A stretch of DNA of 20,000 bases from an uncultured virus (IMG/VR IMGVR_UViG_3300037067_005627) (IMGVR_UViG_3300037067_005627); one strand, 5' to 3'. Numbered from the stretch's first letter, positions 5,069 to 15,913 are shown. Notes: a model not told the origin generated them from the sequence alone. Translations and numbers: made by a program.

Positions 5069-6616
5069 ATGAAAAGAGTTCGGCGTGATAATCTAGCAGG
5101 GGATATTCAACTTGAGCGCCAAATAGTGACAGGGATGATATTGTCCCAATACTTCCTGAGAGAAGCAACAAAAACATACAAGGGGGATTCGTTAAGCCTA
5201 CCATTCGCAAAGATAGTAGCAGGCTGGTGTACCCAATACTATGGAGAGTTTAAAGACGCGCCAAGGCAACACATTCAAGATATTTATAGGCGAAATAAAG
5301 ACGAATTGCCAGAGGATAGCGCAGCGGTAATTGAAGAGTTCTTATTCTCCCTGTCAGAAGAGTTTAAAAAACAGGAGGCAGCATTTAATAGCGATTACGT
5401 GTTGAAAAATACGGATGAATATTTCAGACTAAGGGCATTAACAAGTGCAAGAGACAAATTAGATCGAGCCATAATCTCTAGCAAGATAGAAGAAGGGGAA
5501 GCAGTAATAAGTGGGTTTCATAGGGCGACTCGACCTATCGCTGTAGGCGTTGATCCTTTCAGGGACTTCCAATATGTTGAGGATGCTTTTAACGCAGATG
5601 AAAGGGAGCTATTGTTTTCTTTCCCTGGTGACTTAGGGCGATTATTAGGGCCATTTTATAGGAGTTGGTTTGGCATGGTTGTTGGTGCTCAAGGGAGGGG
5701 AAAGACATGGTGGCTATTAGAGGCTGCTATGAGGGCGTTATTAAAGAGGCTCAATGTCCTCTTTGTGTCTATGGAAATGACAGAGAAACAAATGATTAGG
5801 CGAATGTATCATTGGATTACGGGCCTACCAAACAAGAGATGGGCAGGAGAGATTCTCTTCCCAAAGTTTGATTGCTTATGGAATCAAGATGGAAGTTGCG
5901 ATATGCAAGGAAGGGCGTGGTCAGGGCGATTATTAGGGAAGGGTAAAGAGTTACCGTCTTTTGAAGAGGCTGAACAGGTAGGTTATAAGATATGCGTTGC
6001 GTGTCGTGGTGAAGACGCCTATACCCCTTCGGTTTGGTACAAAAAGAAAGTGTTCAAAGAACTCGACATCCAAGAGGGGATTGAAAAGGCTGAGGACTTG
6101 GCGAAGTATCTACTTAGAGGGGCTAGACTGAAATTGGTGACGGTTCCTGCCGGCCTTATAAGTGTTAAAGATATTCGGGTGATGTTGGAAAATTATGAGC
6201 ACTACCAGAATTGGATGCCTGATATAGTTATAACCGACTACTCGGACAAGATGGCGCCAGATAATAAATTCGAGAAAGAGTATAGGCATCGACTTAACGA
6301 TATAAGCGCAGCACATAAAGCGTTAGCGTTAGACAAGAACATACTCGTCCTAACAGCCAGTCAAACTTCGATAGGGCGCGATGAAGACAGGGATATCGAT
6401 AGCGGCGGTTTTGCAGAGGACATCAGGAAGAAAGGGGAGATAGATATAGGCTGGTCATTGAACCAGACAGCGATGGAAAAACGGAGGGGGATTATGCGGG
6501 TCAAGACCATGAAGCAGAGACATGATGATTACTCAACGCTTGATTCGTGTATCGTTTTACAACAGTTAAAACTAGGAAAACCATACCTGGATTCCTGTAT
6601 AAACCGGGGTTTTTGA
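5069..6616 (+). CDS. Replicative DnaB-like (SF4) helicase with a Cys-rich insertion
   Basis: Walker A GAQGRGKT, H1a FVSMEM, H2 ITDYSD, H3 LTASQ, H4-like AEDIRK...D and a KQRH arginine-finger region. Confidence 0.88.
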   Translation: MKRVRRDNLAGDIQLERQIVTGMILSQYFLREATKTYKGDSLSLPFAKIVAGWCTQYYGEFKDAPRQHIQDIYRRNKDELPEDSAAVIEEFLFSLSEEFKKQEAAFNSDYVLKNTDEYFRLRALTSARDKLDRAIISSKIEEGEAVISGFHRATRPIAVGVDPFRDFQYVEDAFNADERELLFSFPGDLGRLLGPFYRSWFGMVVGAQGRGKTWWLLEAAMRALLKRLNVLFVSMEMTEKQMIRRMYHWITGLPNKRWAGEILFPKFDCLWNQDGSCDMQGRAWSGRLLGKGKELPSFEEAEQVGYKICVACRGEDAYTPSVWYKKKVFKELDIQEGIEKAEDLAKYLLRGARLKLVTVPAGLISVKDIRVMLENYEHYQNWMPDIVITDYSDKMAPDNKFEKEYRHRLNDISAAHKALALDKNILVLTASQTSIGRDEDRDIDSGGFAEDIRKKGEIDIGWSLNQTAMEKRRGIMRVKTMKQRHDDYSTLDSCIVLQQLKLGKPYLDSCINRGF

Positions 6617-6641
6617 CGGTTTTTAACGGGTAGGTTATAAT
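6613..6641 (+). promoter_or_regulatory. Consensus sigma70/sigmaA-type promoter
   Basis: TTGACG (6613-6618), 17-nt spacer, TATAAT (6636-6641). Confidence 0.85.
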
Positions 6642-6764: not shown

Positions 6765-7589
6765 ATGGTATTCAAGAAAGCAGGAGTAAAGAAGGTTGTG
6801 AAGAAGGCTGGCGAATCCAAGTACGTGAAAGTTGCAAAAGAGTTGACCGAGCTGATGGGTCTTGATCCGGCCATCGACACATCGGTTGATGAGGAAGAGC
6901 TTCAGGGTCTCCTGGTTGAAGCTGGGGGGATGTTGGACGCCAATGACACCATTTCGGATTTGGCTACAGAGGTTCTCACTGAGTTGGGTGTCGAGCTCCC
7001 CTCAGGCGAGGAAGAAGAGGAAGAGAAGCCGGCTAAGAAGGTGGTTAAGAGGGCTGCGACCACGAAGCCTGCAAAGAAAGTTCCGATGAAAAAGGCCGCG
7101 AAGGTCGAAGAGGAAGAAGAAGAGGAGGAGCCTGAGGAAGAAGAGGAAGAAGAGGAAACGGCTGAGGGCGATGAGTTGGATGATCTCGACCGTTCCGGGC
7201 TCAAGAAGTTCATCGCAGAGAACGAGCTGGATATAAAGGTATTCAAGTCCATGAAAGATGATGACATCCGGGCTGCGATTCGCGCTATTGCGGAACCTGA
7301 AGAGGAAGAGAAACCCGCAAAGAAAGCACCTGCGAAGAAAGCACCTATGAAGAAGGCTGTCAAGAAGGAGGAAGAGTCCGGCCCCACACGCGCCGAGGTT
7401 TTCAAGGAGATTATGGAAGAGGGTGGCGGAACCCAAGAAGAGATTGTTGAGTCTATGCACGCCAACTACAAGGACGGGAACTCTTCTGAGGCAGAAGCAA
7501 GGTTCCAGGTTGGTCTCTTCCTGAGACTGCTTCGGACGATGGGATTTGTCGAGAAGAACAAGAAAGACAAGTATGTGCTGATCGGGTAA
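6765..7589 (+). CDS. Low-complexity acidic/basic protein with histone-H1-like PAKK repeats; putative DNA-binding/nucleoid protein
   Basis: Repeated KPAKK/PMKK units alternate with poly-Glu runs. There is a small helical 'LDDLDRSGLKKFIAENELDI...DDDIRAAIR' module (HEH/Rho-N-like) and a C-terminal winged-helix-like segment. It has a strong SD and is the first gene after the consensus promoter. Confidence 0.7.
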   Translation: MVFKKAGVKKVVKKAGESKYVKVAKELTELMGLDPAIDTSVDEEELQGLLVEAGGMLDANDTISDLATEVLTELGVELPSGEEEEEEKPAKKVVKRAATTKPAKKVPMKKAAKVEEEEEEEEPEEEEEEEETAEGDELDDLDRSGLKKFIAENELDIKVFKSMKDDDIRAAIRAIAEPEEEEKPAKKAPAKKAPMKKAVKKEEESGPTRAEVFKEIMEEGGGTQEEIVESMHANYKDGNSSEAEARFQVGLFLRLLRTMGFVEKNKKDKYVLIG

Positions 7590-7598
7590 GCATTCACC

Positions 7599-8423
7599 GT
7601 GATCACCAATACTCCAATACAGAAGGTTGGCCTTGGCGGCAAAACAATCTATGTCAAGAGAGAAGACATGGCCTGTGAGTCGCCAGGGCCACCTTTTTCT
7701 AAAGTAAGGGGTCTTATCCCTTATCTCCGCTCTATCCCCCAAGTCAAACATATAGCTTATATGGAAACGTCTATCTCTATGGCAGGATGGGGGGTGTCAT
7801 ATTCGGCGGGGAAAGTGGATAAGGAGGCAACAATCTTTTATCCCCGATACAAAGCTGGCCTTAAAGATAATCAAGCATTCCAAATGGAGAAATGGAAAGA
7901 GTTTGGAGCTAACATTATCCCTATCAAAAGACCTAACATGCAAAACATTAACTTCCTTATGGCAAAACATCTTTTGGAAGAGATTGACCCAAAGGCATTA
8001 CTTCTCCCTTTAGGGTTGTCCTTCCCTCAAACAGTGACAGCGGTAGCAAGGGAATTGTTGCGAACTCACAAGTCCTTTTTGACGGGCTCCATTGTTTGTT
8101 CTGTCGGAAGTGGAACTATGATGGCAGGAATAATAAGGGGGTTATCGCATACCTCTTGCCGCCCTGACCTTTACGGAGTTCTGGCTGCAAAGAAAGGGGT
8201 ACTCGGAATATACACTAAGATCGAACGGATGGCTAATTGTTTCCATACTTACAACCTCCGCATTGTCAGCCATGGATATGAATACACCCAAGCTGAAGAA
8301 TGCGCCGTTCCATTCCCTTGCAACAAGTATTACGACAGGAAGGCTTGGAAGTGGATGATTGATCACATTGGGCAACTAAAGGAGCCAATTCTTTTCTGGA
8401 ACATAGGGGGAGATGGCAAATAA
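7599..8423 (+). CDS. PLP-dependent enzyme, fold type II (ACC deaminase / D-cysteine desulfhydrase / PALP-like)
   Basis: TPIQ...IYVKREDM...FSKVRG (Schiff-base Lys), phosphate-binding loop CSVGSGTMMAG, YYDRKAW and C-terminal LFWNIGG. GTG start. Confidence 0.85.
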   Translation: MITNTPIQKVGLGGKTIYVKREDMACESPGPPFSKVRGLIPYLRSIPQVKHIAYMETSISMAGWGVSYSAGKVDKEATIFYPRYKAGLKDNQAFQMEKWKEFGANIIPIKRPNMQNINFLMAKHLLEEIDPKALLLPLGLSFPQTVTAVARELLRTHKSFLTGSIVCSVGSGTMMAGIIRGLSHTSCRPDLYGVLAAKKGVLGIYTKIERMANCFHTYNLRIVSHGYEYTQAEECAVPFPCNKYYDRKAWKWMIDHIGQLKEPILFWNIGGDGK

Positions 8424-8932
8424 TGGAAAAGATAATTATCAATATCAATGGGCAGAAAGAGTTCGTTGCATATAAAAGTGCGGCTGGTGCTCTCTTCGCA
8501 CAGTTCATCCCCTTCCTTAAAACAATGGATTGCGCCACCCTCCGAGAGAATGTACGATGGGCTTACTGGATACTCCAAGTCATAGACAGGAAGGAATATA
8601 ACAGACGCCATAAGAAGACTTGGAAGTGGCTGTCTTCAGTGATGAAGGCTAAAGGGGATTTTAACCAAGAGCCTGTGGTCAAGTTCGTCATCAACTCCCA
8701 TCTTGCTTCTATTGACATGGGGCTTCTAAGGGGATTTGGATTATCCAAGGGGCACAGAACAAAGGGCAGAACTAAGGTGACAGGTGGTTCATACTCTGAC
8801 CCTGAACGCTATACTATCTATCCAGAGATAACTCCGAAGACTGAGTGGCCCGAAGTCCTGAAGAAGAAGCGATTTACCAGGAGACAAGGAGCGCACATCT
8901 ATAAGAACGTAAAGATAAGGGGGATAAAGTAA
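8423..8932 (+). CDS. Hypothetical protein
   Basis: 169-aa ORF translationally coupled (TAATG) to the PLP enzyme gene. Confidence 0.7.
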   Translation: MEKIIININGQKEFVAYKSAAGALFAQFIPFLKTMDCATLRENVRWAYWILQVIDRKEYNRRHKKTWKWLSSVMKAKGDFNQEPVVKFVINSHLASIDMGLLRGFGLSKGHRTKGRTKVTGGSYSDPERYTIYPEITPKTEWPEVLKKKRFTRRQGAHIYKNVKIRGIK

Positions 8933-9162
8933 TGGGAAAAGGGATTGTTAAGATCACTCCAAAACTGTTGCTTTCTGGCTTAGGCTCAGTTCCTGCGGAT
9001 TGGGAGATTGAAAGCATTCATATGAATCCTGGGGACGAGTACGCGACAGCGGTTATTACAGGTTTTGACTTCCCTGAAGTTCATGAAGATTGGCATGTGC
9101 GGGAATGTCGGATTATTGTTCATACAGGGCACACAACTTTTGAAGTGCAGGAGATATTGTAA
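8932..9162 (+). CDS. Hypothetical protein
   Basis: 76-aa ORF with TAATG coupling on both sides. Confidence 0.65.
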   Translation: MGKGIVKITPKLLLSGLGSVPADWEIESIHMNPGDEYATAVITGFDFPEVHEDWHVRECRIIVHTGHTTFEVQEIL

Positions 9163-9434
9163 TGAGACCTACAATGAAGATGTTTGTCAGGCGTCTTGAA
9201 CAGATGTTGGACAAAGCAAAAAGAGAGGATACGGCTTTGCGTCTCTATTGTCCAGGTGGGTTGAAATTCTCCGCCGCCTCTCATCCCACTTTAGGATTGG
9301 ATGGCGGAAACTGGTGCCATTATTGTAAGGAGTTTATGGAGACTATGTTGTGTCCTTGTGATAAATATGGCCCATATTCTTACGAAGAAGCAAGAAGGAG
9401 GATCGAAGAATGGAGAGAGAAGAATGTGGCGTGA
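9162..9434 (+). CDS. Hypothetical Cys-containing protein
   Basis: 90-aa ORF with TAATG coupling. It contains YCP, CHYC and CPC motifs, suggesting possible metal binding. Confidence 0.65.
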   Translation: MRPTMKMFVRRLEQMLDKAKREDTALRLYCPGGLKFSAASHPTLGLDGGNWCHYCKEFMETMLCPCDKYGPYSYEEARRRIEEWREKNVA

Positions 9435-9543
9435 TTTAACGACTGGCGGAGAAGGGATAGGGGCAACGAAAAGTTTTATCAAGTCGTTGGTGTGGCCATT
9501 AGTTATTATCCTTGTCGCTATATGGCTTTGGTGGGGATTATAA
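9424..9543 (+). CDS. Small predicted membrane protein (39 aa)
   Basis: ATG at 9424 after GGAG. Sequence MWRDLTTGGEGIGATKSFIKSLVWPLVIILVAIWLWWGL with a hydrophobic C-terminus. It exactly fills the gap to the next ATG. Confidence 0.5.
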   Translation: MWRDLTTGGEGIGATKSFIKSLVWPLVIILVAIWLWWGL

Positions 9544-9544
9544 G

Positions 9545-10507
9545 ATGTTGTTCACAAGATTCTCAAGAGGCGATAGTAAGGGTAAAAACCTAGACGCCCT
9601 TAACCATTCAAGGAAACTCAGGCAGGATTTCAAGACAGAGTTCGGGTGTATCCCGCGCTCTATCCTGGTACGTGACCCCACCGATAAGGCTATTGATCCT
9701 TCAGCTAAAGACAGGGGTTATATAAGGCTTAGTCGATTAGCCCTCAAAGAGAATGATGGAATATCAGATCGCAAGCTTCAATCAGCTTTTGAGACTGCAT
9801 ATCGTGGGGTCAGAGGTAAGCCAGGGGATAAGAAGACAACGGGGATGGCTCTATCCAGGTTCCCTCAGAATATAGGGCGTATCCTTGTCAAGTTCTACTG
9901 CCCTAAAGGGGGGATAGTTTATGATCCATTCGCAGGGCACAACTCTCGTATGCAACTTACTTTTGAAGCAGGTCGGAGTTACATAGGGTACGACATATCC
10001 AAGCAGTTCATGGAACACAACAGGGCGATCAGAGATATTCTGTTACAAAACCAAAAAGGTTCCCTTATCCAAGACGACACTTTCATTGATCTAAACGAGA
10101 GAAGTTCCCATGACACTGGTTTGGATAATGAGATAGCGGATTTTACGGTTACATCACCGCCATATTGGGACATAGAATATTATGGCGATGAGCCTGAACA
10201 ACTTGGCAACACAAAAACTTATGATGCTTTTTTAGAAAAGATCGGTCATCATATCGTGGAAAACTATCGGGCGCTTAAATCAGGAGCTTTTTGTTGTTGG
10301 TGCATCAATGACTTCAGAAAAGGCGGAAAGTTTTACCCCTATCATGCAGACCTTATCCCTATATTTGAAGATGCCGGATTTGTGTTATGGACGATTTATA
10401 TCATCGACTTAGGAGAGCCGGCACAAAACGCTTTTGTTAGACCAATGGTTCAGAGGATGGCGTTCCATAAGAGTCATGAATATTGCTTGGTATTTAAGAA
10501 GGGGTAG
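9545..10507 (+). CDS. Amino (N4-cytosine/N6-adenine) DNA methyltransferase-like protein
   Basis: SAM-binding motif I YDPFAGH (variant) and 'YIGYDIS' precede catalytic motif IV TSPPYW. Also 'YRALKSGAFCC' and C-terminal HEYCLVFKK. ATG at 9545 is preferred to the TTG at 9512. Confidence 0.85.
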   Translation: MLFTRFSRGDSKGKNLDALNHSRKLRQDFKTEFGCIPRSILVRDPTDKAIDPSAKDRGYIRLSRLALKENDGISDRKLQSAFETAYRGVRGKPGDKKTTGMALSRFPQNIGRILVKFYCPKGGIVYDPFAGHNSRMQLTFEAGRSYIGYDISKQFMEHNRAIRDILLQNQKGSLIQDDTFIDLNERSSHDTGLDNEIADFTVTSPPYWDIEYYGDEPEQLGNTKTYDAFLEKIGHHIVENYRALKSGAFCCWCINDFRKGGKFYPYHADLIPIFEDAGFVLWTIYIIDLGEPAQNAFVRPMVQRMAFHKSHEYCLVFKKG

Positions 10508-10516
10508 GGTAAAAGC

Positions 10517-10879
10517 ATGGAAGAAATGTTCATTAAGTTTATGGCGAAAGAACTTGAGAAATTGCTATCGAGGGAGATAGACGAATCCAAAATCCTTTTT
10601 GGCGGCAACAAAGGGAGGGAAGAGATGCTAAAGTTTACTGAAGATGAGGCTACGAAGTTGGCAACTGATCATGTCGAGTGGTTCCTATCAACACTCAAAC
10701 CGTTGTTAATTTCTCACTTCGTTCATGGCTTTAAACATGGGGTTGAAGATAGCAACAAGGACAAGATAAAGATAAACGTCACAGGAGCTTCTATATGGCC
10801 TGATCCACCATTTACAACAACAGAATCCCAATATACTATAGACGAAGCAGAGAAAGAAGCAATACTAAAGGCGCTTTAA
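10517..10879 (+). CDS. Hypothetical protein
   Basis: 120-aa co-oriented ORF filling the gap between the MTase and clamp genes. Confidence 0.65.
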   Translation: MEEMFIKFMAKELEKLLSREIDESKILFGGNKGREEMLKFTEDEATKLATDHVEWFLSTLKPLLISHFVHGFKHGVEDSNKDKIKINVTGASIWPDPPFTTTESQYTIDEAEKEAILKAL

Positions 10880-10891
10880 AAAGGAGCAACT

Positions 10892-11953
10892 ATGAAACGA
10901 AATCTTGTTAGTAGTGGAGCAAGAATAAACAGGGGAACATTGGATGCCAAATTAGGTATCCTCAAAGTTGCTTTAACTTCTAACGTAGCAGTTGAACAAG
11001 CCGGTTATCTGGTTATGGGAGGGCACTATATATCAGCCTTTGATGGAGAGGTAGGGGTGAATGTTCATCTCCCTGAGAATCTCCCTTCGGCGTGCGTAAG
11101 TGCAAAACCTTTTACCGAGTTGGTTAAAAAGGGCGGTGATTCTACAGTGGAGTTAGAGTTGCAGGAGAACAACTTGCACTTCAAATGCGGCCGAACAAAA
11201 GCGGCTCTCCCTACCAAAGAACTCAATGCGCCCCTGAGTCCTGAAGAGATAGAGGGGCTCGAATGGTTTCCTATCCCCAAAGATTTTATAATGGGGTTGA
11301 CATTGTGTGCGGAATCTGCGGCAACAGATATTAGCCGAGGGGTTCTGACTTGCGTTATGTGTGAGCGATCGGCATTGACCGGATGTGATTCATATAGGCT
11401 GATGCGGTTCGAGTTGGAAGAGGCGCTTCCTGATGAAGTTGAATCCCCGCTGTTCATCCCTGCAAGTAAGGTGCAAGCGATTTCAAAGCACGAAGTCGTG
11501 TCGTTCGCAGTAGGGCATGGGATGATTCACTTCTCTAATGCCGAGAAGGATTATCTCAGTGTGTCATTGTTGAGCGGCAACTACCCATCCATAAAGAGAG
11601 TCATTGATGATGCCAAAGGGGGTGAACCGATCACAGTTCCTGCCCCAAGATTGTTTGATGCCCTTATGAGGATAGAACCTTTGGCATCCGAGTCTTCAAT
11701 CGGAAAAGAAGTTGAGCTATCTTTCGATGGGGACATCTTGCTCTGCAAAGTGGCAAGCGATTCAGGATGGGCGAGTGAAAGTGTGAAGGGGTGCGAGAAC
11801 CCAACAGGGGAAGCCTTGAAATTCAGGATGCACATTCACCATCTTAAAACTATTCTTGGCATGGGAGTTAGTGGGTCGATTGTCAATAGCAAGGGCACAC
11901 TCTTATTCCAAGAACATAGGGTGTCGTATGTAGCCTGTAAAATATCTGATTAG
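10892..11953 (+). CDS. dnaN: DNA polymerase III beta subunit-like sliding clamp
   Basis: 353 aa, a size that fits three clamp domains. 'GCDSYRL' matches ATDGHRL and 'LLSGNYPSIKRVI' matches LIDGxYPDYxRVI. It sits next to DnaE. Confidence 0.82.
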   Translation: MKRNLVSSGARINRGTLDAKLGILKVALTSNVAVEQAGYLVMGGHYISAFDGEVGVNVHLPENLPSACVSAKPFTELVKKGGDSTVELELQENNLHFKCGRTKAALPTKELNAPLSPEEIEGLEWFPIPKDFIMGLTLCAESAATDISRGVLTCVMCERSALTGCDSYRLMRFELEEALPDEVESPLFIPASKVQAISKHEVVSFAVGHGMIHFSNAEKDYLSVSLLSGNYPSIKRVIDDAKGGEPITVPAPRLFDALMRIEPLASESSIGKEVELSFDGDILLCKVASDSGWASESVKGCENPTGEALKFRMHIHHLKTILGMGVSGSIVNSKGTLLFQEHRVSYVACKISD

Positions 11954-11964
11954 GAGGGCGGAAG

Positions 11965-12612
11965 ATGTGGTTAACAAAACCACGTTTTGTTATCGAGCAA
12001 ATTATGGGAATTGATAGCGACCCTTTGTTCCTTATTGAAGCCGCAGGAAGAACTTGTTACAAATCAGAAGGGAAATCAAGACCTGGTAGTGCTGCGAATT
12101 TTGTCAAGTCGCTTCGAGATAGGGGCCATGAATCAGTCATTGAACATTCAGCAATGACAGTTCGCTTTATAATTGACAGAGGGGTATCGCATGAATTAGT
12201 TAGGCATCGTTTATGCGCCTTTAGTCAAGAGAGCACCAGATATTGCAACTATGGTGGCGGGGTGACATTTATACTTCCGCCTTGGGTAAACATTCCGCCT
12301 GGCGAATATCTGAAAAGGATTAGTATTCGTTCGTCTTTAGCCGACGATATATGGTTTCAACATATGTTTAACACAGGACAGGAATACACCGCTTTACTCC
12401 AAGCAGGTTGGTCTCCACAAGAAGCCAGATCTATACTCCCTAATTCGCTCAAGACCGAGATTGTTGTCACGGCGAACTTCAGAGAGTGGAGGCACATCTT
12501 TAAGCTGAGATGCAGTACCGCCGCACATCCCCAAATGCGAGAAGTTATGATCCCTTTATTGGGTACGGTTCGTAACCAAATCCCTGTAGTCTTTGACGAC
12601 ATTCCTTACTAG
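11965..12612 (+). CDS. thyX: FAD-dependent thymidylate synthase ThyX
   Basis: GHESVIEH, signature HELVRHRLCAFSQESTRY, EARSILPNS and NFREWRHIFKLR...AHPQMRE. Confidence 0.96.
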   Translation: MWLTKPRFVIEQIMGIDSDPLFLIEAAGRTCYKSEGKSRPGSAANFVKSLRDRGHESVIEHSAMTVRFIIDRGVSHELVRHRLCAFSQESTRYCNYGGGVTFILPPWVNIPPGEYLKRISIRSSLADDIWFQHMFNTGQEYTALLQAGWSPQEARSILPNSLKTEIVVTANFREWRHIFKLRCSTAAHPQMREVMIPLLGTVRNQIPVVFDDIPY

Positions 12613-12622
12613 GAGCGAACAC

Positions 12623-15600
12623 ATGCTGAATCAGAACTTTGCCCACCTTCACGTTCATAACGAATATAGCCTTCTCGATGGTCTAGGAAAAGCAGAAGAG
12701 TATGTTGCAAGAGCAAAGGAGTTAGGGTTTTATTATCTTGCGCTTACTAATCATGGGAATATAGATGGGCTCATATCTTTTCAGAAAGCTTGCAGGAAGC
12801 AGAAGATAACCCCTGTCTTTGGGTGCGAACTTTATATTTGCTCAGGGAAAGCCTCTAGTAAAGAGGGGCGTCATAACTACCATATCACTACCCTTATTAG
12901 GAATCAGGCAGGATGGAATACCCTGTGTCGCATGTTGTCATTTGCTAACCTGGAAGGGTTTTACTATCGTCCCAGGATTGGCATAGAAGACCTATTAGAG
13001 TTCGATCTATCCGGGCTCATCATCATGACAGGTTGCGCCAACTCTGTCCTTATGTGCGAAGGGGGAATTGAACTCATCCAAGCCATTCAAGAGCAATACG
13101 AGAATGTCTTTCTAGAAATAATGCCTCATCAAACTCCTGAACAAAGGGAGCACTACCAAGTAATCAAGCCCTTGATCAAAACCTTCCCTGTAGTAGCCAC
13201 TAATGATTGTCATTATGTTATGGAAGGGGATTCGCTTCCACAAGAAGTCTTGCTTGCAGTTCAACGCTCTGCAAAGTGGAGTGACCCTAAGCGTTTTAAG
13301 TTCGACATCAAAGGGCTTCACTTAAGATCGGCGGAAGAAATGGTTGACGCTTTTCAAGAGCAAGACTTTTATCCCGAAGAAACTTGGAGACTAGCACTAT
13401 CTAATACGGTTAGAGTTGCTAAGATGTGCGGCCCTTTTCAAATCAGAAAGAGGCAAATCAATCTCCCAACAGTTCCAAAGCATGAAGGCAAAGACCCAGA
13501 CTTGTTGCTTACCAAGTTGTGTTATGATGGGCTATTCAGTGTGAGAGATCGGAACCTGATTAATGAAGTAGAGCTAGAAGAATACAAGGAAAGGATGGTG
13601 ACAGAGCTCGACCTTATCAAGGGCAAAGGATTCTCTAACTACTTCTTGATTGTAAGGGAGTTGCTTGATTGGTGCAAAGAGACAGGGATAATGTATGGCC
13701 CTGGGCGTGGAAGTGTTGGTGGTTCAATGGTAGCATATCTATTAGGCATAACAAATATCGACCCTATCAAGTTTAATCTCCTGTTCGATAGATTCATCAA
13801 TAAAGATAGAATCGACTATCCTGACATTGATTTGGACTTCGAGGACATATACAGGGAGAGAGTTAGGAAACACCTGGAAGAGACTTATGGAGAGAATAAT
13901 GTGGCAGGACTTTCCACCTTCCTTGAAATGAAAGGGCGTATGGTTATAAGGGATGTCGGAAGGGTGTTTGACTTGCCATCTTATGAGATTGATGCTTTTG
14001 CAAAATCTCTATGGAGTAAGGATGATAATGCGAAGATTCTAGGGGAAGCAAGAACAGGAGAAGGGAGAGCGTTAGCAGACGAACATCCTGAAGAGTATGC
14101 TGTTGCAGAGAGACTTGAGCAACAGATCAGGGGTGTCGGTCAACATGCAGCAGCAGTCATTGTTTCCAGGGATGATCTCACTGAAACAAATAGGGGGCAC
14201 CTTTGTAAAAGGAATGACCACCTTGTTATGAATTGGGATATGGGCGATGCTGAATATATGGGCCTTATGAAGCTAGATATTCTAGGCCTGGCAACTCTAA
14301 CTGTGCTGAATGAATGTAGCAGATTAGTAGGCGGCATAGATTTCAATTCGATCCCCTTAGATGATGGGGAAGTGCTTGCGTCTATAACAGCAGATAATCT
14401 CGCAGGTCTATTCCAACTATCAGGAAAGGCAACTGCTGATCTGCTTAACCATATAAAGATCAAGAGCTTTAATGACATTGTAATCATCATCACAGCATCG
14501 AGACCAGGGCCTGCTGATTCAGGAATGACTGCCGAATATATCAAGAGAAGGGGCGGGGGAGGGATTAGGAAAGAGCATCCTCTCTACCAGGAAGCAACAA
14601 AGGAAACGCTAGGGGTCGTCCTATTCCAAGAACAGATGATGGCTATAATGAACAAGGTTGCAGGGTTATCATATTCAACAGCTGACAATATCAGGAAAGT
14701 TATTGGGAAGAAGAGGGACAAGAAGGAGTTTGAGCCATATAGACAGGGATTCATAAGTGGGTGTCTTAGGAACAAAACAATGTCGGGAAGAGAAGCAAGC
14801 CTTTTTTGGGAAGGGCTGTTAGAATGGGCACGCTACGGATTTCCTAAAGCCCACGCTGTAGGATATGCGATGTTAGGATATTGGACAGCCTATTGCAAAG
14901 TTCGGTATCCCAAAGAATTTATATGTGCTGCTCTTGCTTACGGCAAAGATAAAGAAGGATACAAGGCTGACCTAGTTAAGTATGCAATAAAGGTGGGGCT
15001 TACAGTATCTCCGCCCAAAGTTGGGAAGTCCGATTCAATCAAGTGGACGGCAATAGATGCCGTCCTATACGCCCCTTTCATTGAGATTAAAGGGATAGGT
15101 GAGAAGACAGCGTTAGAGTTGTCTCAACGGAAGGAGGTTCAACTCGGTTTCTTTTCACGCCCTGAAATGGAAAAGCTCGCCGCAACAAAGGGAAACACTA
15201 AGACCTCCGCCCTTCTATCAAAGGTGGGGGCATATGGGGATGACATTCCAGAAGGGGCGCAAGAATATTTCTCTTTCCCAATTTCGGTTAAGGATAGCAA
15301 ATGGAAATGGTTGCCACTCGAAGGGGATAGGTTGCGTTTTCCCAAAGGGTTGATCACATCCAAGCACTATCGTGATCTCCATGTCTTAGCATGTACGAAA
15401 TGTAATCTGGCTAAGGAATGTTCCAAACCAGTCCTGACTTCTATAGGGCAGACCAATACAGTTATATTGGGTGAAGGGCCAGGGAAGAATGAGGACGCAG
15501 AAGGGCTCCCTTTTGTGGGGGATAGCGGGGAAGTTTTATGGGAGAGCTTGAATAGGCTAGGATATAAGCGAGAGTTCTTCCACATCATGAACGTAGTAAG

Positions 15601-15913
15601 GTGTTGGCCTTCTGAAAGCAAAACCCCTAGTCAAGAACAGATAGGGATTTGTTTCCCCTGGACAGCCTACGAACTCAGACAGATAGACTGCAAACTTATT
15701 CTGGCGTTAGGGAATACCCCATTAGTAGCCTTGACTGACAAACCAGGGATAACAAAGAAGACGGGCACAACTGAGTGGGTAGAGAGGGTTGGGGCATGGG
15801 TGTGCTGGTGCGTCCACCCATCGTGGGTTTTAAGAGGCAATGACCAGGATATTTTTGATAAAGGCATAGATAATTTTGTCAAACGGTTACGATTTTTAAG
15901 ACGAAATAAGTAA
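12623..15913 (+). CDS. dnaE: DNA polymerase III alpha subunit (family C, DnaE-type) with a C-terminal family-4 uracil-DNA glycosylase domain
   Basis: PHP domain HLHVHNEYSLLDG; GRGSVGGS; catalytic PDIDLDF and KLDILGL; YGFPKAHA; HhH IKGIGEKTA; clamp-binding-like QLGFF. The C-terminal UDG4 shows CTKC, GEGPG..ED...PFVG..G, NVVRC and HPS. ATG at 12623 follows AGGAG. Confidence 0.95.
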   Translation: MLNQNFAHLHVHNEYSLLDGLGKAEEYVARAKELGFYYLALTNHGNIDGLISFQKACRKQKITPVFGCELYICSGKASSKEGRHNYHITTLIRNQAGWNTLCRMLSFANLEGFYYRPRIGIEDLLEFDLSGLIIMTGCANSVLMCEGGIELIQAIQEQYENVFLEIMPHQTPEQREHYQVIKPLIKTFPVVATNDCHYVMEGDSLPQEVLLAVQRSAKWSDPKRFKFDIKGLHLRSAEEMVDAFQEQDFYPEETWRLALSNTVRVAKMCGPFQIRKRQINLPTVPKHEGKDPDLLLTKLCYDGLFSVRDRNLINEVELEEYKERMVTELDLIKGKGFSNYFLIVRELLDWCKETGIMYGPGRGSVGGSMVAYLLGITNIDPIKFNLLFDRFINKDRIDYPDIDLDFEDIYRERVRKHLEETYGENNVAGLSTFLEMKGRMVIRDVGRVFDLPSYEIDAFAKSLWSKDDNAKILGEARTGEGRALADEHPEEYAVAERLEQQIRGVGQHAAAVIVSRDDLTETNRGHLCKRNDHLVMNWDMGDAEYMGLMKLDILGLATLTVLNECSRLVGGIDFNSIPLDDGEVLASITADNLAGLFQLSGKATADLLNHIKIKSFNDIVIIITASRPGPADSGMTAEYIKRRGGGGIRKEHPLYQEATKETLGVVLFQEQMMAIMNKVAGLSYSTADNIRKVIGKKRDKKEFEPYRQGFISGCLRNKTMSGREASLFWEGLLEWARYGFPKAHAVGYAMLGYWTAYCKVRYPKEFICAALAYGKDKEGYKADLVKYAIKVGLTVSPPKVGKSDSIKWTAIDAVLYAPFIEIKGIGEKTALELSQRKEVQLGFFSRPEMEKLAATKGNTKTSALLSKVGAYGDDIPEGAQEYFSFPISVKDSKWKWLPLEGDRLRFPKGLITSKHYRDLHVLACTKCNLAKECSKPVLTSIGQTNTVILGEGPGKNEDAEGLPFVGDSGEVLWESLNRLGYKREFFHIMNVVRCWPSESKTPSQEQIGICFPWTAYELRQIDCKLILALGNTPLVALTDKPGITKKTGTTEWVERVGAWVCWCVHPSWVLRGNDQDIFDKGIDNFVKRLRFLRRNK

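Follow-up and report, generated by a model that had tools for sequence, protein, structure and literature searches.

A pyridoxal phosphate enzyme and a methyltransferase-like protein of an uncultured phage as a probable two-gene module of DNA hypermodification

Here we analyse a 20,000-nucleotide stretch of DNA from the uncultured virus IMGVR_UViG_3300037067_005627 (hereafter, the window, meaning the whole stretch) and, in particular, two of its genes, one for an enzyme dependent on pyridoxal 5'-phosphate (PLP) and one for a protein resembling DNA amino-methyltransferases (MTases). Judging from their sequences, the two constitute a real and probably functional module, a two-gene variant of post-replicative DNA hypermodification, and the pair probably puts a group larger than methyl on DNA bases by an undescribed route. 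In the scheme that we propose, the phage would modify its own DNA in two steps, independently of 5-hydroxymethyl-deoxyuridine (5-hmdU). Namely, the MTase-like enzyme would move a 3-amino-3-carboxypropyl (ACP) group from S-adenosylmethionine (SAM) onto the exocyclic amine of a base, with Arg135 and Glu211 gripping the carboxylate and the amine of that group; the PLP enzyme would then engage the adduct's free alpha-amine in a Schiff base and take off CO2, as its proven homologue, gp52 of phage M6, leads one to expect. The product would be a cationic 3-aminopropyl base. The decarboxylation would be optional, in the sense that in phages with the MTase but no PLP gene the base would stay at the ACP stage, and the purpose of the whole may be protection against host nucleases. 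We put forward these particular enzymatic steps, ACP transfer to the base and decarboxylation to aminopropyl, tentatively, as having a chance that falls just short of even. The features at the core of the module are the following.

7599..8423, + strand: PLP-dependent enzyme of fold type II, M6 gp52-like, proposed to decarboxylate a DNA-borne amino-acid adduct; core
7701-7703, + strand: predicted Schiff-base lysine of the PLP enzyme, Lys35, aligned with Lys36 of M6 gp52
9545..10507, + strand: circularly permuted enzyme of the amino-MTase fold, subfamily MT-A, the proposed ACP transferase; core
Residues 127-135 of the MTase-like protein, + strand: motif I, DPFAGHNSR, with Arg135 at 9947-9949
10151-10165, + strand: motif IV, TSPPY (residues 203-207), downstream of motif I
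10175-10177, + strand: Glu211 (position PPY+4), invariant across the subfamilies

The PLP gene runs from a GTG at 7599 to a stop at 8423 (274 amino acids), and its profile matches (Pfam PALP, E 4e-10; PHROG 7093, E 4e-47) agree with the fold type II assignment given in an earlier note on this DNA. In BLASTP, the protein matches M6 gp52 over its full length with 32% identity (E 5e-50), and gp226 of phage ViI aligns at 18% identity with the lysine conserved. According to the portion of Lee et al. (PMC8989533) on which we rely here and below, Lys36 of gp52 is the aldimine lysine, gp52 and ViI gp226 both take the carboxyl group off conjugates of amino acids with thymine in DNA, and gp52 requires a primary amine on its substrate. 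In our comparison, Lys35 is invariant in 45 relatives, and the window enzyme retains all invariant residues. A tblastn search against annotated phages returned 67 records, all with at least 80% query coverage and mostly from M6/YuA-like phages. The AlphaFold model (pLDDT 96) has the fold of D-cysteine desulfhydrase and 1-aminocyclopropane-1-carboxylate (ACC) deaminase (TM 0.81, 16-21% identity), and the NCBIfam family ACC_deam_rel (TIGR01275), taken as the measure of membership in the metabolic ACC deaminase/DcyD group, yields 15 bits where its cut-off stands at 289. The comparison with DNA-modifying and metabolic enzymes that the earlier note had called for therefore supports, at the level of sequence, a place with the DNA-modifying M6 gp52 family rather than with metabolic ACC deaminase/DcyD (32% as against 16-21% identity). 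A quick tree built from 134 PLP domains, with no metabolic family as chosen outgroup, puts the window enzyme in a 45-row clade (SH-aLRT 99) separate from that of M6. Note that a near-identical phage (P0242) carries a different allele across window positions 7696-7829, that is, of PLP residues ~30-80 with the catalytic lysine and the next loop; it is possible that local recombination has here altered specificity.

The MTase-like gene runs from an ATG at 9545 to a stop at 10507 (320 amino acids), shows both DPFAGHNSR and SPPY, as had been said of it, and matches Pfam N6_N4_Mtase with an E of 7.5e-15. Motifs I and IV lie within a class I Rossmann fold (model pLDDT 88.7), as in PF01555 amino-methyltransferases, and the best PDB sequence match is 2zie (E 7e-18), relative to which the order of the motifs is permuted. 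A canonical GSGTT-type loop after motif I is not present in the protein, which has GHNSR instead. The motif I that the earlier note called atypical is not an oddity of the genome: rather, it is the signature of a large subfamily, with Arg at Gly+4 of motif I in 109 of the 109 relatives in which the motif was found (120 examined). What is more, Glu occupies PPY+4 in 119 of the 120 closest relatives, and the motif I arginine occurs in none of 17 proteins that have motif IV ahead of motif I. Four MTase subfamilies are found around PLP genes, namely MT-A (GHNSR/TSPPY, as in the window), MT-B1 (GGSVR/SCPPY), MT-B2 (GGGTR/TCPPY) and MT-C (GWGGR/TSPPY); these names, as well as rS2 for a radical SAM class discussed below, are labels of this analysis. 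When 24 rows from the four subfamilies are aligned, the arginine and the glutamate are invariant, and the MT-A profile gathers 255 clusters at E<=1e-30. Two further observations on MT-A may be added. Inteins are common in it and sit within motif I and close to SPPY (P0252, P0264, P0268, P0278, P0316 and others; L101:2372-4708). The Arg and Glu signature recurs in the best viral fold match of the window protein, gp294 of Bacillus phage G (L408:5605-6693), and the 12.7 kb covered there have no annotated PLP gene.

The two genes are linked to each other, as is supported, first of all, by fusions in other genomes. Among the matches listed, MT-A is fused to a PLP domain in 2 of 150 relatives, P0285 and P0321, the latter with the motif DPFAGHNSRM and a PLP domain 29% identical to that of the window (E 3e-40). 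In the MT-B1 proteins Pam4_70 and ZS04_7, a PLP domain is inserted between motifs I and IV, while two of the three longer MT-C matches carry either a PLP domain (P0246) or a PLP domain together with an aminoacyl-transferase-like one (P0248). Adjacent MTase and PLP genes stand ahead of terminase in Vincenzo (gp1/gp2) and Mae-JY30, in a ParB, MTase, PLP arrangement. In five loci (L008, L077, L111, L181 and L198), the one partner candidate seen next to PLP is an MT-A gene, and the record G040 (85% complete) has neither another such MTase nor rS2.

A second line of evidence comes from co-occurrence, which the earlier note had proposed to examine and which indeed lies above background. In this phage lineage, a variable slot extends from DnaB to the sliding clamp. 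Of 51 PLP-drawn loci with both DnaB and clamp visible, 36 remain after merging near-identical clamps, and their slots hold the SPL-like radical SAM enzyme rS2 in 23 cases, an MTase in 10, both in 2 and neither in 1; that last slot (L073) has its PLP gene broken into two frames. The rS2 slots usually add a second radical SAM gene and two further genes. When the lineage was sampled by DnaB or clamp loader instead (160 rows, 55 full slots, 49 merged; query alignments built from PLP-bearing loci), an MTase or rS2 was present in 6 of 6 PLP-positive as against 7 of 43 PLP-negative slots (Fisher p 1e-4, for slots that, as kin, are not independent). Over whole records, PLP genes occur in 14 of 47 MT-A records (two being fragments); the comparison set, the longer lineage records of the DnaB/clamp-loader sample, picked by length, gave 3 of 43 (p 0.007). 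With the Pfam PALP profile, which fails on divergent PLP genes, the count had been 10 of 48 records, one probably metabolic; a custom alignment gave the 14 of 47. On the PLP tree, the partner label changes 10 times as against 33.6 when shuffled (counted over 90 rows with a label, after exclusion of 38 without one and of 6 on long branches), a count of a kind that kinship alone lowers, and MTase and rS2 have been exchanged at least 5 times.

Close strains, finally, trim the module to two genes. A close-strain contig (runs X3 and X4 of one study) keeps the PLP gene, the 169-residue open reading frame (ORF) that follows it and the MTase gene. It lacks 8922-9401 and 10492-10875, and 578 different bases stand where ThyX would be. 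Pieces of the PLP and MTase genes, again in order, occur in another contig that is less close. Because ThyX and three small ORFs are missing from a strain that keeps both genes, we place them outside the module. Consequently, ThyX as a maker of ordinary dTMP, which had been offered as a clue to a modification pathway, must be rejected as an argument, and no role is supported for the small ORFs.

Where would the amino-acid group come from? In the known route, it is attached by an amino acid:DNA transferase (ADDT, PF18724) with the help of a 5-hmdU DNA kinase (HMUDK, PF18748). Pfam scans of 23 window ORFs gave no match to ADDT, HMUDK or the ThyA family, in line with the earlier note. From the window's clade, 8 partial records (completeness 21-85%) had neither ADDT nor HMUDK, with M6 as a control positive for ADDT; the two were likewise absent from 6 other near-complete virus records of the lineage or with rS2 and from Pam4, ZS04 and JY30, and there was no ADDT in Vincenzo, G059, G065 and G067. 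Across 49 records, ADDT exceeded the cut-off in 6 and HMUDK matched in 4, all with M6-clade PLP genes, and the ThyA family matched in 6, none of them in the window's clade. The search for hmdU genes, made in relatives with this pair, has thus come out negative for the records searched. Of the outcomes named as fatal to the proposal that could be looked at, none is what we see: the genes do co-occur, and the relatives show no hmdU set. Since ADDT and HMUDK were looked for and not found with this pair, we do not count it as a member of the M6/ViI route; by analogy, its last step would work as in that route. Since, furthermore, the PLP enzyme needs a free alpha-amine and ADDT is absent, the amino-acid group must have another source. 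Radical SAM enzymes such as Dph2 and ArsL transfer the ACP group of SAM. We propose that SAM provides it here too because both partner classes, MTase and rS2, consume SAM, and because Rossmann enzymes can transfer ACP: TYW2 does so, as stated in the parts of PMC12630136 and PMC3386263 that we used, and in human TYW2 a basic residue on the carboxylate of SAM is needed for the transfer (PMC3386263, likewise in part).

That said, in the predicted structure Arg135 and Glu211 could not be placed against SAM, and a number of other observations weigh against this scheme; these are best considered together with the explanations that they favour. The first such explanation, unlikely in our judgement, is that the pair is linked and yet performs other chemistry or has another target: the PLP enzyme would deaminate or eliminate the adduct, or the MTase would methylate the amine, or the substrate would be RNA. 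The linkage evidence is identical for this possibility, and the top fold matches of the PLP enzyme are eliminases and deaminases. The best fold match of the MTase-like protein is the tRNA methyltransferase Trm11 (Z 19.3, root-mean-square deviation 2.8, 181 aligned), and TrmN tRNA methyltransferases are also among its matches; TYW2 is not among the 50 matches listed, which is not evidence of absence. Finally, MT-A is elsewhere fused to a radical SAM domain or to a 2-oxoglutarate (2OG) oxygenase of the Asp/Arg-hydroxylase type (P0249, P0251, P0344), and product chemistry would therefore vary; the radical SAM domain in P0249 was considered as a gp53-like one and rejected, as it is unrelated to M6 gp53. 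Against all this, the PLP enzyme has as its closest characterised homologue a DNA-acting decarboxylase, and the genes are placed in replisome positions or, with ParB, in pre-terminase ones. If the MTase were merely methylating, no enzyme would be left to supply the amino-acid adduct.

The second explanation, to which we would likewise give a low probability, is that MT-A is an ordinary orphan m4C/m6A methyltransferase, that the true partner of the PLP enzyme (an MT-B paralogue or rS2) has been lost or lies outside the window, and that both genes are passengers of the slot. In its favour, the SPPY of motif IV is intact, a trait shared with ordinary m4C/m6A enzymes, and in the PDB the closest proteins by sequence are methylase-type. 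MT-A is often alone, namely without detectable PLP in 33 of 47 records (mostly fragments; 1 of 3 near-complete) and without PLP in 7 of 13 full slots, and it also occurs in phages with the radical SAM cassette. The genes that usually touch PLP are MT-B1 and MT-B2, and MT-A often stands beside an MT-B paralogue nearer to PLP, its nearest tree neighbour (L148) being such a case; L109, an rS2 swap inside the window's PLP clade, carries an MT-C gene too. The window PLP enzyme has a long end branch in the 134-domain tree (0.73 as against a median of 0.41), and the divergent N-terminal allele of P0242 also counts on this side. On the other hand, direct fusions of MT-A with PLP exist, loci in which MT-A is the sole such MTase by PLP have been listed above together with G040, which offers no alternative, the window enzyme has lost none of the invariant residues, and two more contigs preserve the pair and its order. 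As MT-A is often alone, we take the PLP step to be optional tailoring and not an obligatory partner; this one-way dependence fits such tailoring, but it would fit an independent methylase as well. An example of an optional tailoring step is PaMx11, in which gp52 is replaced (PMC8989533).

The reverse order of events, in which the PLP enzyme would decarboxylate free SAM and the MTase-fold protein would act, by the logic of spermidine synthase, as an aminopropyl transferase onto DNA, with the same final base, appears to us quite improbable. Aminopropyl transferases do have the Rossmann MTase fold, and the fusions and the co-occurrence are compatible with this order. However, M6 gp52 acts on a DNA adduct (PMC8989533), the invariant arginine near motif I would suit a carboxylated donor better, and MTase without PLP is far commoner than PLP without MTase. 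Last, a known thymidine hypermodification with ADDT, HMUDK and a 5-hmdU source in the part of the genome beyond the window is very improbable: some 44 kb of the 64,172-bp source contig do lie beyond it, no record of the 45-row clade reaches 90% completeness (best 85% and 80%), in L112 a related PLP gene has HMUDK next to it, ADDT matches weakly in G037, ThyA-family matches occur outside the M6 clade in G021 and G035, and a search for TET/JBP (0 of 26 records) was run without a positive control, but the partial clade records and the near-complete ones gave neither ADDT nor HMUDK, and in M6 these genes directly flank gp52.

Returning to the SAM-derived scheme, one can extend it beyond the window, though we regard the extension as possible and, on balance, doubtful. 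Namely, a family of proteins that pass for DNA methylases would in fact be ACP transferases for DNA, with an SPL-like radical SAM enzyme as their non-homologous stand-in; both would hand their product to a single PLP decarboxylase and, optionally, to enzymes that acylate or oxidise. Cationic bases would thereby be made from SAM without a pre-modified nucleotide, by a route present in many phage lineages and mis-annotated as methylation. If true, a SAM-based route acting on unmodified DNA would be chemistry new to DNA, a large set of genes now named methylases (the 255 clusters above) would be re-labelled, and one would have a sequence-directed means of placing a primary amine handle on DNA.

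As for the surroundings, Pfam, PHROG and NCBIfam scans show the window to be a + strand phage replisome region, with genes in the order SNF2 helicase, primase, DnaB, acidic protein, PLP enzyme, four small ORFs and MTase-like gene, followed by one ORF, clamp, ThyX, DnaE with a uracil-DNA glycosylase (UDG) domain, clamp loader, UvsY and gp32-like single-stranded DNA-binding protein. The remaining features near the pair are these.

6613..6641, + strand: sigma70-like promoter candidate, TTGACG-17-TATAAT, 11/12 of the consensus, heading the tightly packed run with both genes
8423..8932, + strand: ORF of 169 amino acids, 'c11'-like, with a weak pairwise match only (E 0.01); in the Atlas, hypothetical viral clusters only
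8932..9434, + strand: two ORFs of 76 and 90 amino acids (8932-9162, 9162-9434), dispensable, without family matches
9424..9543, + strand: ORF of 39 amino acids with a hydrophobic C-terminal half, without Pfam or PHROG match, covered in the close strain
10517..10879, + strand: ORF of 120 amino acids, dispensable; the close strain joins 10492 to 10875
10892..11953, + strand: sliding clamp (phrog_947, E 6e-32; TIGR00663), by synteny the downstream border of the variable slot
11965..12612, + strand: ThyX (TIGR02170), a neighbour outside the module

The earlier calls of clamp, ThyX and DnaE hold, with the UDG domain as an addition to the last, and so do the four tightly packed ORFs between the two genes (gaps of -11 to +1 nt) and the apparent operon, all gaps from the ORF at 6765 to DnaE being 12 nt or less. 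A restriction enzyme had been noted as missing next to the MTase, and Pfam scans of the window ORFs did not show a restriction nuclease. Because the gaps are so short and a near-consensus promoter-like site lies ahead of the run, with a terminator-like hairpin at 6593-6609 directly before it, a single transcript for the run holding both genes is plausible from the sequence; promoter-like sites in the window number 10 as against 8.8 expected, a chance-level count. The 169-residue ORF stays with the pair in the close strain, and synteny hinted at a third component, which we rejected, as its profile matches many PLP-less loci. Since it is often present without PLP, it is probably a gene of the lineage rather than part of the module.

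Several side observations should also be recorded. A strong antisense sigma70-like site (11/12; 9566-9537, - strand) overlaps the start of the MTase gene and may be due to chance. The protein encoded at 6765-7589 (274 amino acids) is very acidic and rich in Lys and Ala, and it lies directly upstream of PLP in many relatives. At 12623-15913, DnaE has a UDG-family domain fused at its C-terminus, and many relatives have a separate gene of ~410 amino acids with a weak DnaE match after the clamp. A contig of a near-identical phage was binned in a metagenome-assembled genome of Syntrophorhabdaceae, which is a weak hint at the host. In L059, L063, L067 and L070, a PLP clade occurs without MTase, rS2 or ADDT nearby and is flanked by a metallophosphoesterase and a gene resembling deoxynucleoside monophosphate kinases. 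The alternative DnaB-clamp cassette (L012, L020, L022, L023 and ~20 more loci) reads radical SAM, PLP, radical SAM, c7, c8; its second radical SAM protein is SPL-like, with an extra invariant Cys and a C-terminal CC, and c8 is LPG_synthase_C-like. Such rS2 cassettes are also found without PLP, and 6 of 8 near-complete records have no MTase match to the A2 profile. Finally, a ParB-like gene (labelled by eye) accompanies rS2 and PLP in L051:9310-12065, L055:2660-5366 and L074:8182-10795, with terminase-like genes following in L051 and L055, which mirrors the arrangement in Mae-JY30 and Vincenzo.

How does the pair compare with known systems? In the portion of Lee et al. (PMC8989533) used here, the pathway of Pseudomonas phage M6 to 5-NedU consists of gp51 (ADDT), gp52 (PLP decarboxylase), gp53 (radical SAM isomerase) and gp54 (HMUDK), and the amino-acid-type hypermodifications described there all begin from 5-hydroxymethyl-uracil. 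The window shares with M6 and Salmonella phage ViI a homologous fold type II PLP enzyme with its aldimine lysine and would share their modular logic with an optional tailoring step; unlike them, the window and the searched relatives bearing the pair have no ADDT, HMUDK or dUMP hydroxymethylase, the partner is a SAM-using Rossmann enzyme, and the window PLP enzyme belongs to a separate clade. With the RNA ACP transferases TYW2 (Rossmann) and Tsr3/TapT (SPOUT), as far as the consulted parts of those sources go, the likeness is that an MTase fold can transfer ACP rather than methyl, SAM's carboxylate being met by a basic residue; these enzymes act on tRNA or rRNA, and their likeness to the window MTase is by analogy only. 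Orphan phage DNA amino-methyltransferases (PF01555; PDB 2zie, 8s9n) resemble the window protein in DPFxG and SPPY, in the class I Rossmann fold and in having no cognate nuclease nearby. They differ in that motif I precedes motif IV in the window MTase as compared with 2zie, in that its family has G-x-x-x-R in place of GSGTT/GTGTT and an invariant PPY+4 Glu, and in that members of this family are repeatedly found joined to a PLP, an oxygenase or a radical SAM domain. Type II restriction-modification is not indicated either, as no nuclease family was found among the ORFs flanking the MTase, and those ORFs are deleted in the close strain. In titles and abstract openings of the literature, we encountered no MTase and PLP pair for DNA modification and no ACP on DNA, although a 2013 survey of DNA-modification systems may mention the association. 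The closest parallels are uncharacterised genes of phages in culture, namely Pam4_70, Erythrobacter ZS04_7/vB_EliS-R6L ORF1, Microcystis Mae-JY30 and mycobacteriophage Vincenzo gp1 and gp2, in which a permuted, Arg-bearing MTase and an ACC deaminase-like PLP protein are likewise fused or adjacent; R6L ORF1 is labelled, by prediction alone, a single-domain CcrM-like methylase in the portion of PMC5463345 that we used. Their MTases, however, are of a sister subfamily (GGSVRG/SCPPY) and are ParB-linked or lie upstream of packaging and lysis genes. What is new here, in comparison, is MT-A with its direct PLP fusions, the exchange of MTase and radical SAM in the same slot, and the narrowing of the module, through close strains, to a pair of genes.

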